Below are positions 25,665 to 49,462 of a stretch of 49,462 nucleotides of DNA, piece by piece. Every line of letters starts with the position of its first letter. Within the stretch, counting starts at the first letter, position 1. The stretch lies in NCBI GenBank assembly GCA_045126755.1, contig JBGVOY010000139.1:1-49462 (forward strand), in the 5' to 3' direction. Below the pieces are notes generated by a model. It saw only the letters and a program-made list of their open reading frames with translations, was not told the origin of the DNA and did no database searches. The position numbers and the translations under genes were made by a program. The stretch comes from Alphaproteobacteria bacterium (GTDB taxonomy: Bacteria > Pseudomonadota > Alphaproteobacteria > RF32 > CAG-239).

Positions 25665-26633
25665 CTAGGTAACTTCAGTAATTGCACGCAAGTTACCATC
25701 ACGATTGATTTGAACAACCCTTAATTTATGGCGCATTTCCTCAATCGTTTTTACTCTGTCAATAGTAGGATATGTGTGCAAAATACGGTCTGTAAATGCC
25801 TGATATGCAGCTTCTGAACTTTCAGCGTGAATTGTTGCCAAGCAGTTATCGTGACCTGAACCCATCAACTCCCATAATGCACCGGCATTAGATGTTGAAA
25901 TCTCACCTCCGATAATGGCATCAGGTGTAAAACGAACCACCAAGTCAATAATTTTTGCATAATCCATTTCGTTAGTTTGCTCGGTACGAGATAATGTTAA
26001 ATGCACTCTGTTCGGATGCGGAACCAAAAGTTCTCGGGTATCCTCTATGGTAAGCACTCTTTTATGAATATCTAAAATTTTTAACAAGTTATTCAAAAAA
26101 GTTGTTTTACCGGTTGAGGTTGCACCACTTACCAAAATATGATCGCCCCTTTTTATACTCAATAACAATCTTTCATACGGATCTTCAGGATCTTTAATAT
26201 CTTTCAGTGGGTTTATCTTATGCAAAGCTTTTCCTTGTGTTAATCCGTAATCGGATAATCCGAATGCAACGTCATCACTGTGAATACGAATTGTTAAAGC
26301 AACACCGCCTGTTAAATCATCATTATCATACATAACGTTACGGCCTGCAATCGCCGAAAAACGGTGGTCTCCCGGTATAGTTGCATAAACAACCGGAGAA
26401 CCTTGAACAGGGTCAAACGGAAGTTCGTATGTATTTGCAATAATATACAGCAAATCTGTTAAATATTCTTTGGAAAGTTTTTCATCTTTATACATTACCC
26501 ACGGATATGCTCTCTTGCCGCGTAGCCTTAACCATATCTGCCCTGCTTTATTGATGGCTACTTCCTCAATATTTTCCTGATTATACCAATATGATAATGG
26601 CCGTAAAACTGATTCTAATACCGTAAAACTCAT
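25665..26633 (-). CDS. virB11: T4SS ATPase VirB11
   Basis: 322 aa. N-terminal ...EEVAINKAGQIWLRL, Walker A SGATSTGKTTFLN, Asp box LTIEDTRE, His box GHDNCLATIHA. Last gene of the operon. Confidence 0.9.
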   Translation of the reverse strand: MSFTVLESVLRPLSYWYNQENIEEVAINKAGQIWLRLRGKRAYPWVMYKDEKLSKEYLTDLLYIIANTYELPFDPVQGSPVVYATIPGDHRFSAIAGRNVMYDNDDLTGGVALTIRIHSDDVAFGLSDYGLTQGKALHKINPLKDIKDPEDPYERLLLSIKRGDHILVSGATSTGKTTFLNNLLKILDIHKRVLTIEDTRELLVPHPNRVHLTLSRTEQTNEMDYAKIIDLVVRFTPDAIIGGEISTSNAGALWELMGSGHDNCLATIHAESSEAAYQAFTDRILHTYPTIDRVKTIEEMRHKLRVVQINRDGNLRAITEVT

Positions 26634-26644
26634 ATCTTTATCCT

Positions 26645-47068: not shown

Positions 47069-47146
47069 GGCGACCTCCTCATAATTAGTCTTACATATCA
47101 ATATTTTATCATAGTATTTGCCTATCTCAAAGCAAAAAATATTAAA

Positions 47147-49462
47147 TTACGAAATATTTAAATATTTTGTAACAAAGTTATCTTCCCCGTATTCCTTAAT
47201 CAATTCTTCAACCAAAAGCACATTTTTTCTACCCGAGTTGTATAATTTCAGATATGGTCCCAAAGAACCTAAATTAACATCCAAAATTACAGATTCTCCC
47301 GTCGCCGGACGTGAAAGCAAAATTGCATACGGAAAATCACGATACGAACGACCGAACACAAAATCTAACTCTGTTTGTGTTAAGTTCCAAGTTGCATAAT
47401 CTTCAGGCATCGCTTGAGGGTTTCTGAAGAATATAACCGTTTGACACTGACCACGTATAACCTCGCCCACACCTAACTTATCAATAATGTTAGGTTGTTG
47501 GAACGCACATAAATATGCCTGACGTTTTTTACGTCCTTCTTGCAAACCGATGATAAAATAATCTTTAAACATCGGGTGCTTTAACATAGGCGCGGTCTCG
47601 TCTATCATGATAAGTGAGGGAACACCTGTTTCACCGGTTTCAGATTGTATACGGTGCATAATATAGCTGATTACCGCAGGAGCCAATGTTTCGTCTTCAA
47701 AAATATGCGTAAAGTCAAAAGCCATAAAACGTTTTGATTTCAAATCCAAACTATCGGTATCAGCATTAAAGATATTACCGTATTGGTCAGGGTTTACCCA
47801 ACGATATAATTCTCGGCGCATAACCCCTGTCGGCGAAAAACAACTCTTATACAAGTTTTTCATAATTCGTTCTTCAGGGCGCAAATAGTCAAAAGATGTG
47901 GTAACGGCACGAGCAATTTCTTTTTCGGATAACGCATCATCAGCCATTGTAATAGATTTCATCCAACGACGTAAAAATGCTCTGTTATTAGCTGTATTGC
48001 TGGCATCAAACGGATTTAACGAAACATTCTTTTCATCGCCGTCAAAACCTACATAAGCACCCCCAACCGCACGTGTAAAGATTTCGGCACCTCTGTGACG
48101 GTCAAAGAAGAACACTTTCAAATCGCCATGTCGCATCGCCTGACCGGCTAAAAATGTAAGCAAGGTCGTTTTACCCTGTCCGGTAGGACCGATAATACAG
48201 CAGTGCGCAACGGCAGATTCTTCAGGAGATACGTGGAACTGAAACTTATACGCAGAGCCCGACATCGTCCTAAATATCGTAATAGCACCCGGCCCCCAGT
48301 CACTCTTTCCGAAACCTTCAGACGGTTTATCAAAGCAAACCGCCATAGCTACAACCCTTGACAAATAACGATACGTTCTCGGATATGTATCGTATGTAGG
48401 GAATTGGCTAAAGAATGTTGCTTGAGCAACCCAGCCTTCACGAACAGGTGTAACACCGAACGAACGGCAAATTCTTTGAACTTCACTTTCGCCAAACTCA
48501 AGCTCTTCTTTGCTTCTTCCTCTTAAAATAACAGAAAAAGCATATTCGGTAAGCGCTTGATAGTCGGCATCACTATCTTCAATGGTTGCCAAAGCTTGCG
48601 AATATTGCCCTAAAATTTCCGGAGAAAAACTGGTTAACGCAGCCATACGTTGTTGTTGAATCAACATCATGCGAGCTTGCGGCTTAAATATAGGTCGTAT
48701 GTTATGCATCATAACAAGCTCACAGTCAATAGATAAAAGCGAAACCACCATACTTTCATCCATATAATCGCCGGTTGTTCTGATACCAATGGCAATTTCA
48801 TAAAGTTCCTTTTCACCGGAGAAAAACTTAATAATACCTTGCTCTCTGGTAAAATGAATATGGTCTGCCGTCAGCATTTCTTTTAATTCGGCATCTTTTG
48901 CATTCCTTATCTTAGGCTCAGGCCTTGATATCGGAGAACATAAACGGCTGAATACATACAACGGGCTATCAACCGCTTTGCTGTCAGGCGATTCATACAA
49001 CTGAGAAACGCCATACTCATTCAGCGTCGAAATTAAAGACTGACAAGCATAGTTCAAATCTTTTAAAGCATCTTTTCGGTCCGGAACAGAAAGAATAACA
49101 TAGTGTGTATTGCTAAATATTCTGGACATGCCCGATGCCCAAACATTTGACACTGTTTCCAACAGCTCGTTGTTAAAATTGCCTTTTACATTTTCAAGTT
49201 CACTAAGCTCTCTTAAAGTTAAAACCCTGCTGACTACCTGCAAATCAGACATATTGTCAATCCAAGCTTTGCGGGCCTCCATCATCGAATATACTTTTTC
49301 AGGAGTTACTGCCCCCAAATCCATACCCGTAATTCTGAAAACACGAACAAACGCCCCGTTCGTGCATCGGATTGTCATTCCGTCTTCCATAAGCGAAGCA
49401 AATGGTAAAAAGTCTGAAACTCGAGACTCTCTCGGTTGCGGCAAAACCTTATTGCCGAATTT
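47147..49462 (-). CDS. virB4: T4SS ATPase VirB4 (5' end probably just outside the window)
   Basis: At least 765 aa. Walker A IIGPTGQGKTTLL, Walker B-like SLIMIDETAP. N-terminal ...VSDFLPFASLMEDGMTIRCTNGAFVRVFRITG resembles VirB4/TrbE N-termini. The reading frame stays open to base 49462, so the TTG at 49444 is only a possible start. Confidence 0.9.
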   Translation of the reverse strand, partial: KFGNKVLPQPRESRVSDFLPFASLMEDGMTIRCTNGAFVRVFRITGMDLGAVTPEKVYSMMEARKAWIDNMSDLQVVSRVLTLRELSELENVKGNFNNELLETVSNVWASGMSRIFSNTHYVILSVPDRKDALKDLNYACQSLISTLNEYGVSQLYESPDSKAVDSPLYVFSRLCSPISRPEPKIRNAKDAELKEMLTADHIHFTREQGIIKFFSGEKELYEIAIGIRTTGDYMDESMVVSLLSIDCELVMMHNIRPIFKPQARMMLIQQQRMAALTSFSPEILGQYSQALATIEDSDADYQALTEYAFSVILRGRSKEELEFGESEVQRICRSFGVTPVREGWVAQATFFSQFPTYDTYPRTYRYLSRVVAMAVCFDKPSEGFGKSDWGPGAITIFRTMSGSAYKFQFHVSPEESAVAHCCIIGPTGQGKTTLLTFLAGQAMRHGDLKVFFFDRHRGAEIFTRAVGGAYVGFDGDEKNVSLNPFDASNTANNRAFLRRWMKSITMADDALSEKEIARAVTTSFDYLRPEERIMKNLYKSCFSPTGVMRRELYRWVNPDQYGNIFNADTDSLDLKSKRFMAFDFTHIFEDETLAPAVISYIMHRIQSETGETGVPSLIMIDETAPMLKHPMFKDYFIIGLQEGRKKRQAYLCAFQQPNIIDKLGVGEVIRGQCQTVIFFRNPQAMPEDYATWNLTQTELDFVFGRSYRDFPYAILLSRPATGESVILDVNLGSLGPYLKLYNSGRKNVLLVEELIKEYGEDNFVTKYLNIS

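Follow-up and report, generated by a model that had tools for sequence, protein, structure and literature searches.

A P-type secretion locus of uncultured gut Alphaproteobacteria with a split VirB10 expanded by beta-flower repeats

In type IV secretion systems (T4SSs), VirB10 is regarded as an unbroken chain through which conformational signals that depend on ATP pass from the inner membrane to the outer. In some systems this protein is greatly enlarged. The Dot/Icm system of Legionella contains a VirB10 homologue, DotG, that is extended by N-terminal pentapeptide repeats and works in the core complex with DotF, a separate single-pass inner-membrane protein. The Cag system of Helicobacter combines a repeat-expanded VirB10 (CagY) with an over-long VirB9 (CagX) and extra lineage-specific secreted components. 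The ComB system consists of ComB2-4 and ComB6-10 and is not known to include VirB11 or a VirB5. Described here is a P-type T4SS locus whose VirB10 is expanded by beta-flower repeats and is naturally split into two proteins. It lies at positions 25665-49462, on the minus strand, of a 49,462-nucleotide (nt) contig from an uncultured, low-GC gut alphaproteobacterium (JBGVOY010000139.1, assembly GCA_045126755.1), the whole of which is referred to below as the window. Twelve densely packed open reading frames (ORFs) were called in the locus, in the order virB4, four genes for signal-peptide proteins (p536, p237, p404 and p1437), virB8a, virB7, virB8b, virB9, a gene for a protein of 1598 amino acids (aa) called R, virB10 and virB11.

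With a probability of about 0.72, these genes are taken to make up most of a P-type (VirB/MPF-T-like) T4SS that is chromosomal and vertically maintained, with a beta-flower-expanded VirB10 that is split in this lineage and with contact-dependent delivery or adhesion, not conjugation, as its most likely role. A scan of one genome per species with a VirB9 alignment found a VirB9 relative in 231 species-level genomes, and the locus comparisons that follow refer to the best 80 of these 231. All 80 loci have one order: large secreted protein, B8, B7, B8, B9, R, B10, B11.

The closest annotated sequences are the plasmid T4SSs of Microvirga sp. VF16 (pMVF16-3, NZ_CP069357.1) and Erythrobacter aureus (NZ_CP031358.1). 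Their genes follow the same order, B2-B3-B4-(B5...)-B7-B8-B9-B10-B11, and their proteins are 36-38% (VirB4), 41% (VirB11), 35-37% (VirB9), 31-33% (VirB8) and 30-31% (VirB10 barrel) identical to those of the window. The VirB7 of the window is homologous to the small lipoproteins that precede VirB8 in both plasmids (E 8e-10 in Microvirga, E 2e-9 in Erythrobacter), with a common SPCAC motif, and the Microvirga VirB9 is likewise long, at 550 aa. In contrast to the window locus, however, these systems are plasmid-borne, include a relaxase (MobA/MobL) and VirD4, and have one VirB8 and an unsplit, repeat-free VirB10 of 529-590 aa; equivalents of p237, p404 and p1437 are not detectable by sequence in these plasmids. 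The VirB4 of a Sphingosinicella plasmid is also 36-38% identical to that of the window, and that encoded on Candidatus Paracaedimonas plasmids is about 30% identical. All these plasmid modules are of conjugative type, and those inspected have components of ordinary size; the Paracaedimonas record bears no annotation beyond hypothetical proteins.

An initial annotation of the window, made without database searches, had counted R as an added component, a second giant repeat protein. Instead, R and the 1398-aa protein encoded directly downstream are identified, on sequence grounds, as the N- and C-terminal halves of a split VirB10 (virB10-N and virB10-C). R begins with a 17-aa cytoplasmic tail, MSKEVLTSSERYVRKTNR, followed by one membrane helix (residues 19-41), an ASH-like immunoglobulin domain at about residues 90-190 (PF15780, a weak match at E 0.0017) and approximately 1400 aa of 17-aa hairpin repeats. 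The tail, MSKEVLTxSE(R/K)YV(R/K)KTNR, and the membrane helix are conserved in all orthologues. VirB10-C starts with a signal peptide, whose predicted cleavage leaves the mature end NEITAIDFNG in the window and QEITAIDFNG in most orthologues. It continues with about 1000 aa of beta-hairpin repeats, the TrbI/VirB10 barrel (1101-1293) and a variable Pro-rich tail. Signal-peptide-type N-termini are also found in the virB10-C orthologues sampled.

The assignment of the two halves is made because residues 1-220 of R align colinearly, from residue 1, with the N-termini of unsplit VirB10s of 1930-2406 aa (E down to 1.5e-26) in sister loci that have no R gene. These unsplit proteins begin with an R-type tail and helix, not with a signal peptide. 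Three unsplit loci read B8-B7-B8-B9-(one 2201-2406-aa VirB10)-B11; their GC content is 41-53% and their VirB11 is 68-77% identical to the window copy. One such locus bears the metagenome-assembled genome (MAG) labels ‘Acetobacter sp.’ or ‘Alphaproteobacteria bacterium’. Division of a single gene by a sequencing frameshift was considered and rejected, as the stop, the 1-3-nt gap and the new signal peptide are conserved across species; the spacing between R and virB10 is 1-3 nt in 47 of 72 loci.

Giant VirB10s of this kind recur in a search with the TrbI domain over 1.8 billion cluster representatives, which returned 87 clusters at E 1e-30 or better, the full-length ones being mostly 1400-2400 aa long. 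The five largest or most divergent matches were inspected, and four of these (1498-2406 aa) join Bflower_2 to TrbI. The fifth, P0369 (1278 aa), carries a repeat-free TrbI/VirB10 domain (599-809) and a T2SSE/VirB11-type ATPase domain (1098-1216), and may represent a fusion of VirB10 with VirB11 or else an artefact of gene calling. A weak neighbour-joining tree of the TrbI domain groups every signal-peptide (split) form in a single cluster and places the unsplit giants between the split forms and ordinary VirB10s of 500-630 aa. The conclusion drawn from these sequences is that an already giant VirB10 appears to have been cut and that its downstream half gained an export signal of its own.

The repeats of both halves belong to a described family. 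The beta-flower proteins (PF21784/PF21785, CL0395) go back to AlphaFold models of small barrels with 8-12 hairpin strands, to which no function has been assigned (Durairaj et al. 2023, PMC10584680). R and virB10-C share with them the Bflower_2 match and the hairpin-tip motif [DNEQ]xxG, which lies within a repeat unit of 17 aa, VVDENGNVIGKxxPDGT. A beta-flower as described is one small barrel of about 100 aa, whereas in the window the repeats make up arrays of about 1000-1400 aa joined to a core protein of a T4SS, and a T4SS context is absent from the defining paper (PMC10584680). The initial annotation had assigned more than half of the locus to proteins of no recognisable family; this does not hold for the two repeat proteins and, as discussed below, probably not for p536, while p237, p404 and p1437 do lack a family match.

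The two arrays are homologous to one another (E 4e-63). The closest match between them pairs residues 1439-1575 of R with residues 32-167 of virB10-C (40% identity), and the C-terminal end of R and the N-terminal end of virB10-C are among the best-conserved repeat segments across species. Array length varies from species to species, giving R proteins of 1099-2446 aa and VirB10s of 1390 to more than 2189 aa. In R, the length differences fall in the regular 17-aa array (residues 220-700), and every orthologue has the C-terminal 900 residues. At the DNA level the period is 51 nt and the copies are 60-86% identical, so the repeats are old and show no sign of serving as CagY-style recombination substrates; recombination-prone repeats of that type are accordingly unsupported. 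An AlphaFold2 model of R 222-561, built on a pseudo-alignment of the window's own repeat segments, consists of short alternating hairpin strands (predicted local distance difference test, pLDDT, 66). Foldseek found no global match to this model in the PDB (template modelling score about 0.1), with local matches only to Rhs/YD, teneurin and CROP hairpin repeats. A beta-hairpin repeat is therefore the supported fold class of the arrays.

The resemblance to Cag, which the initial annotation had termed Cag-like gigantism, is reduced to an analogy by these results. The locus shares with Cag a repeat-expanded VirB10, an over-long VirB9 and extra lineage-specific secreted components. However, its repeats are 17-aa beta-flower hairpins, and CagY is one polypeptide where VirB10 here is two. 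The VirB10 barrel is far nearer to ComB10 than to CagY in the PDB (1.8e-22 against 1e-5), R388 TrwK is the only PDB match of VirB4 (E 3e-39), with no CagE match at E 1e-5, and the length of VirB9 is accounted for by a SPOR-like domain, as discussed below. None of the locus proteins matched a Cag-specific Pfam or NCBIfam family (CagM, Cag3, CagT, CagL and others). A second analogy is offered by DotG and DotF, which likewise pair a barrel-bearing partner with one anchored in the inner membrane. DotF, in contrast to R, is not known to derive from the N-terminus of VirB10, the type of repeat differs, and Dot/Icm is a type IVB system with other components.

The same barrel comparison could point to DNA uptake by a ComB-like competence system, given that H. 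pylori ComB10 is the best solved relative of the VirB10 barrel and that no VirD4 lies nearby. This is a very unlikely role for a locus with a conserved VirB11 in its operon and a VirB5-type protein, neither of which ComB is known to have. The sole PDB match of VirB4, moreover, is to a conjugative protein, and the match to ComB10 may merely reflect which VirB10 domains have been crystallised.

The remaining core proteins place the locus among P-type T4SSs. Profile hidden Markov models matched the VirB4, VirB8 (twice), VirB9/CagX, TrbI/VirB10 and VirB11 families, and the initial annotation's description of a VirB-type T4SS with very large components is borne out; to this extent the system looks complete. 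VirB4 retains an intact Walker A (GPTGQGKT) and Walker B (LIMIDE), the VirB7/VirB9/VirB10 barrel components are accompanied by VirB8 and VirB11, and in three related species VirB2 and VirB3 are encoded just beyond the window end. The placing of virB4 in the operon also stands, but the gene is cut by the end of the window and its frame runs without a stop to 49462; homologues are 810 aa long and 81-91% identical, and come from many gut metagenomes, the few with a name being called ‘MAG: Alphaproteobacteria bacterium’. The core proteins all fall under the NCBIfam curated cut-offs, including the TIGR00929 match of VirB4 at E 6.5e-110, and automatic annotation consequently overlooks the T4SS. NCBI labels VirB11 ‘Flp pilus assembly complex ATPase component TadA’ and VirB4 ‘hypothetical protein’.

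In VirB9 a variable linker connects the VirB9/CagX domain (78-322), which is preceded by a signal peptide, to a conserved C-terminal domain (about 490-572) that is 71-76% identical among orthologues. SPOR (PF05036) was matched in 11 of 12 VirB9 orthologues, with a best E of 2.7e-6, the window copy lying under the threshold. The extra length of VirB9 is thus ascribed to the linker and to a SPOR-like, putatively peptidoglycan-binding, C-terminal domain.

The two VirB8 copies invite comparison with the Rickettsiales vir homolog (rvh) system. In Rickettsia typhi, rvh genes have the order B8-B7-B8-B9-B10-B11, with the divergent B8 before virB7 and a predicted operon start at virB7 (PMC4676284). The hallmarks of rvh are duplicated B4 and B9, a multicopy B6 and the absence of B5 (PMC11077975), and the two VirB8s, RvhB8-I and RvhB8-II, are 18-19% identical, with a deviant NPXG in RvhB8-II (PMC4676284). 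The window locus is similarly part of a chromosomal, lineage-wide alphaproteobacterial T4SS in which the VirB8 copies flank virB7, the divergent one upstream, and are followed by B9-B10-B11. VirB8a and VirB8b are 29% identical to each other, and 27% and 33% identical, respectively, to the single VirB8 of the Microvirga plasmid. Bartonella VirB8 is the top PDB match of the VirB8a profile (3.5e-7) and is matched by VirB8b at 4.9e-12, which, with the sequence comparisons, marks VirB8b as the more canonical copy.

Between virB8a and virB7, an alignment of 17 loci reveals blocks conserved across species, TTGTTGATAAGTTGGGGAT and GTTAGAC-N16-TTTAAT. The latter resembles a sigma-70 promoter and may act as an internal promoter or operator for virB7-virB11. 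Given this conserved promoter-like block, the ‘operon’ may consist of two transcription units separated by a regulator site.

The initial annotation called the locus rvh-like, and of this the gene order holds, while duplicated B4 and B9 and a multicopy B6 are not seen in the window and the absence of B5 is doubtful. There is one VirB4 and one VirB9 in the 49-kb window, and one VirB9 per locus in the relatives. The four genes after virB4 encode signal-peptide proteins, the first with a VirB5-type N-terminus, rather than a VirB6 array. Unlike in rvh, both VirB8 copies keep NPxG and VirB10 is giant and split. In the PDB, the VirB8a and VirB8b profiles matched the VirB8s of Bartonella, Brucella and Trw, and not RvhB8-II, at E up to 10. 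That the locus is a true member or direct sister of rvh, with an ancestral VirB8 duplication in common, is hardly probable in light of these differences, and the annotated systems closest to it are plasmid-borne and have one VirB8. Such kinship would fit the shared order from the divergent B8 to B11, the promoter-like element before virB7, where the R. typhi operon is predicted to start, and the alphaproteobacterial host. It would also fit a 53%-GC relative (L100, 6801-17602) whose B8-B7-B8-B9-B10-B11 block lies between housekeeping and flagellar genes, detached from virB4, in a scattering that recalls rvh.

The four proteins encoded after virB4 have signal-peptide-like N-termini, in keeping with the initial annotation, and no further hydrophobic segment. 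The first of them, p536, adjoins virB4 in the same place as VirB5 in the plasmid relatives. Its mature N-terminus (GFPTFD...) is followed by a low-complexity Ser/Gly/Asp middle and a conserved Cys-containing C-terminal part. The N-terminal motif G-x-P-[TV]-x-D and the helix that follows it are common to Erythrobacter VirB5, which is also the best non-self match of a profile of the N-terminal 75 aa (E 3e-4, 632 sequences). PF07996 is matched by one of 26 orthologues, at 0.021, while the window copy has no Pfam match and a full-length hhalign comparison with VirB5 is not significant. p536 is probably a homologue or analogue of VirB5, as judged from its position and these N-terminal similarities. 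The gene also contains a tandem repeat (46192-46345) of 36/72-nt units encoding SSSSSGGMIDTA. Public contigs of the same strain (L007, L008) end inside p536, breaking within the tandem repeat, which makes the repeat a likely assembly-breaking, length-variable spot.

Of the other three, p237 has a conserved mature N-terminus, ADIEPI, and orthologues that are 21-44% identical; a single-sequence AlphaFold2 model of the protein is all helices (pLDDT 50). Against the PDB, the family profiles of p237 and p536 found generic helical proteins only, with nothing significant for p237, and exact-sequence look-ups with both proteins gave no match. Orthologues of p404 are 20-49% identical and share a C-terminal motif, NQDYRLKNYDKDP. 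p1437 has 14 cysteines past its signal peptide and long Glu/Lys-rich stretches, with no credible match in Pfam, NCBIfam or segment-wise searches. It is present at 1269-1857 aa in 70 of the 80 loci (20-39% identity), and at its position the relatives with an unsplit VirB10 carry proteins of 500-540 aa. The p237, p536 and p404 families, considered as possible paralogues, align in hhalign with 95% probabilities over a stretch that consists of the signal peptide and about 30 residues, and the jackhmmer cross-matches among the secreted proteins may reflect Glu/Lys bias.

The best 80 loci all come from uncultured gut or rumen Alphaproteobacteria of human, ruminant, rabbit, mouse and chicken, some of them labelled ‘uncultured Azospirillum sp.’ or Candidatus Scatocola. 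Across them, identity to the window is 82-98% for VirB4, 77-97% for VirB11, 61-96% for VirB7, 45-75% for VirB8 and VirB9, 38-64% for R and VirB10, and 19-49% or beyond BLAST detection for the four secreted proteins. The exposed parts of the T4SS evolve fast and its ATPases are strongly constrained. The genes are intact in 76 of the 80 loci and four loci have a split ORF; the pseudogenisation in related genomes that the initial annotation had considered is not seen, and a decaying system is rejected.

Flanking genes include trpS, serS, dnaN, recF, alaS, mlaA and mlaC, and such housekeeping neighbours indicate that the locus is chromosomal. They also bear on the question of whether it is a conjugative or integrative and conjugative element-borne system for DNA transfer, as might be expected from the nearest annotated VirB4 and VirB8-VirB11, which sit in plasmid modules with relaxase and VirD4. 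A DNA-transfer role is nevertheless very improbable, for no relaxase, VirD4 or integrase occurs in the window or in the clade loci examined, and at least 80 species share the locus, with 77-98% identity in the ATPases, which fits vertical inheritance rather than a mobile element.

In three related species, sequence beyond the window shows what precedes virB4: three TrbC/VirB2-like genes, of which one is lengthened to 334-479 aa, and, directly upstream of virB4, a gene for a VirB3-like protein of 93-96 aa with two transmembrane helices. Divergent from virB2 in the same species lies a type IVb pilus-like cluster that encodes TcpQ, a secretin, an R64-type PilO, a T2SSE ATPase and unassigned proteins of about 540-680 aa (L010-L012, 1-7241; L096/L097, 1-7600; L098, 1-6827; all beyond the window end at 49462). 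The T4SS and this adjoining cluster may be co-regulated or cooperate.

A VirD4-less T4SS with multiplied surface components is already known from Bartonella, where Trw, with duplicated VirB2 and VirB5, binds erythrocytes (PMC4676284). The locus resembles Trw in that no coupling protein is seen beside it and its pilus-associated VirB2-like and VirB5-like genes are multiplied, which fits a variable surface structure. Across the window and segments L001-L092 of the relatives' loci, tblastn matched neither VirD4 nor a relaxase. In the most divergent family member, L101, a VirD4-like gene (PF02534) lies at 25810-27221 on the opposite strand, 8.6 kb downstream of virB11.

An adhesion organelle of the Trw kind, with variable pili for attachment to a host or partner cell and without substrate translocation, would agree with the lack of VirD4 in the loci examined. 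The three VirB2-like genes upstream in the relatives, the VirB5-type and other fast-evolving secreted proteins and the adjoining pilus-like cluster point the same way. The likelihood of this alternative is nonetheless small. VirD4 could be encoded elsewhere, as the gene in L101 illustrates, and the pilin and VirB5-like genes are not the tandem, near-identical copies of trwL and trwJ: Trw has a core of normal size, whereas the present locus combines a giant core with old, divergent paralogues. The constraint on VirB4 and VirB11 (77-98% identity) is compatible with either role.

For the reading preferred here, a P-type T4SS for contact-dependent delivery or adhesion, a possible architecture can be outlined. 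VirB7, VirB9 and the barrel of virB10-C would form the outer-membrane cap, and the SPOR-like tail of VirB9 would anchor this cap to peptidoglycan. VirB10-N would sit in the inner membrane, its conserved tail facing the ATPases as the N-terminus of an ordinary VirB10 does. The two homologous repeat arrays would fill or span the periplasm and pair, restoring the bridge from inner to outer membrane non-covalently. The C-terminal end of R and the N-terminal end of virB10-C are the segments most alike and are among the best conserved. A core built on paired arrays, in line with the enlarged machine that the initial annotation had supposed, would be much bulkier than that of pKM101 or R388. The exposed, target-contacting part may comprise the three VirB2-like pilins, p536 as a VirB5-like protein and the other three secreted proteins, which are helical and evolve fast. 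The machine would deliver substrates to, or adhere to, another cell, whether host, protist or bacterium, and would not serve plasmid conjugation.

Several points weigh against this reading. The operon, the 25 kb that follow it and, in relatives, the 10 kb that precede it yielded no VirB6, VirB1 or VirD4. A polytopic VirB6 would have several hydrophobic segments, but the proteins encoded between virB4 and virB11 have at most one each, as do the non-pilin, non-VirB3 proteins in the same 10 kb upstream. The machine as seen is incomplete unless these components are encoded elsewhere in the genome. The association of R with virB10-C, and with it the enlarged core, is a prediction from the proteins' sequences. 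Expression of the genes and the existence of a substrate are presumed. The polarity of the split, fission or fusion, depends on a weak neighbour-joining tree and parsimony. The topology, with a cleaved signal peptide and periplasmic repeats in virB10-C, is predicted from hydrophobicity and sequence. The repeat model is of moderate confidence (pLDDT 66), and the repeats may form either beta-flower beads or a fibre.

A bolder version can be offered only tentatively and is on balance unlikely. In it, the locus would be a new T4SS subtype and the signature machine of several uncultured gut alphaproteobacterial lineages, with a role like that of rvh. Each VirB10 protomer would carry a beta-flower array of 2000-3000 residues on two re-associating polypeptides, and a SPOR-pinned core far larger than that of any P-type system would serve obligate cell-to-cell interaction with a host cell, a gut protist or another bacterium, through the first natural split VirB10.

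The features of the locus are collected in Table 1. virB9 and R overlap by ATGA at 35636-35639 (ORF coordinates), p237 and p404 by 1 nt at 44766, and R and virB10 lie 1 nt apart in the window. The gap between virB8a and virB7 is 149 nt and that between virB4 and p536 is 78 nt, if p536 starts at ATG 47068; the remaining gaps in the operon are 7-15 nt. Gene order and spacing are those described in the initial annotation, whose junctions are reproduced by the ORF coordinates. Downstream of virB11, a stem-loop separates the locus from a convergent aminotransferase gene and is likely a bidirectional terminator that closes the operon.

Table 1. Features of the T4SS locus, in window coordinates
Feature	Coordinates	Strand	Evidence
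virB4 ATPase, 5'-cut by window, 771 of ~810 codons	47147..49462	-	PF03135 E 1e-15; TIGR00929 E 6.5e-110
p536, secreted, 525 aa from ATG 47068 (ORF 45491-47101, 536 aa)	45491..47068	-	VirB5-type N-terminus; no Pfam match
p237, secreted, all-helical, Glu/Lys-rich	44766..45479	-	no Pfam/NCBIfam match
p404, secreted, Glu/Lys-rich, presumably helical	43552..44766	-	no Pfam/NCBIfam match
p1437, secreted giant, 1433 aa from ATG 43540 (ORF 39239-43552, 1437 aa)	39239..43540	-	no credible family match
virB8a, more divergent copy, bitopic, NPLG	38465..39223	-	PF04335 1.2e-13
149-nt intergenic region, candidate internal promoter/operator for virB7-virB11	38316..38464	-	17-locus alignment
virB7 lipoprotein, 62 aa, lipobox LLSAC, motif LKLSPCAC	38127..38315	-	lipobox; homology to plasmid lipoproteins
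virB8b, canonical copy, NPIG	37370..38119	-	PF04335 7.2e-22
virB9, 572 aa	35636..37354	-	VirB9/CagX PF03524 1.6e-13
virB10-N (R), 1598 aa	30843..35639	-	Bflower_2 PF21785 E 3e-111, 15 stretches
virB10-C, 1398 aa	26645..30841	-	TrbI/VirB10 PF03743 5.3e-29 (residues 1101-1293); PF21785 3e-44, 7 stretches
virB11 ATPase, Walker A GATSTGKT	25665..26633	-	PF00437 1.4e-21; TIGR02788 7.3e-41
palindromic stem-loop, A-run and T-run flanks, likely bidirectional terminator	25624..25651	.	terminator scan: 12-bp stem, T-tail

Two further observations concern the neighbouring genes. Directly downstream of mlaA-mlaC, on the minus strand at 20239-22869, lies an 876-aa ORF with only a faint cEGF match in Pfam/NCBIfam, which occurs at the same place in other samples of the strain (L001-L003). 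In one of these samples alaS is represented by two ORFs of 513 and 350 aa (L003, 9674-12307), compared to the single 877-aa ORF of the window (17453-20086), and its division there is probably an assembly frameshift.

The system appears to be undescribed, as the initial annotation had supposed: the searchable literature, which excludes subscription-only papers, yielded no description of a T4SS in these gut Alphaproteobacteria or of a beta-flower array in a T4SS. A lineage with a cut VirB10 chain, set beside sisters in which the chain is whole, offers a natural comparison for whether continuity is required. If true, the first natural split VirB10 would directly test the need for a covalent energy relay from the inner to the outer membrane. 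Besides CagY and DotG, the family provides a third, independently reached way of enlarging VirB10 by repeats, and it gives the beta-flower fold its first defined cellular context. The carriers are common uncultured Alphaproteobacteria of human, ruminant, rodent and bird guts, in which public annotation, with its ‘hypothetical’ VirB4 and ‘TadA’ VirB11, largely overlooks the T4SS. For these gut Alphaproteobacteria, the conserved T4SS and the type IVb pilus cluster beside it suggest a life in association with other cells, a possibility not considered so far.

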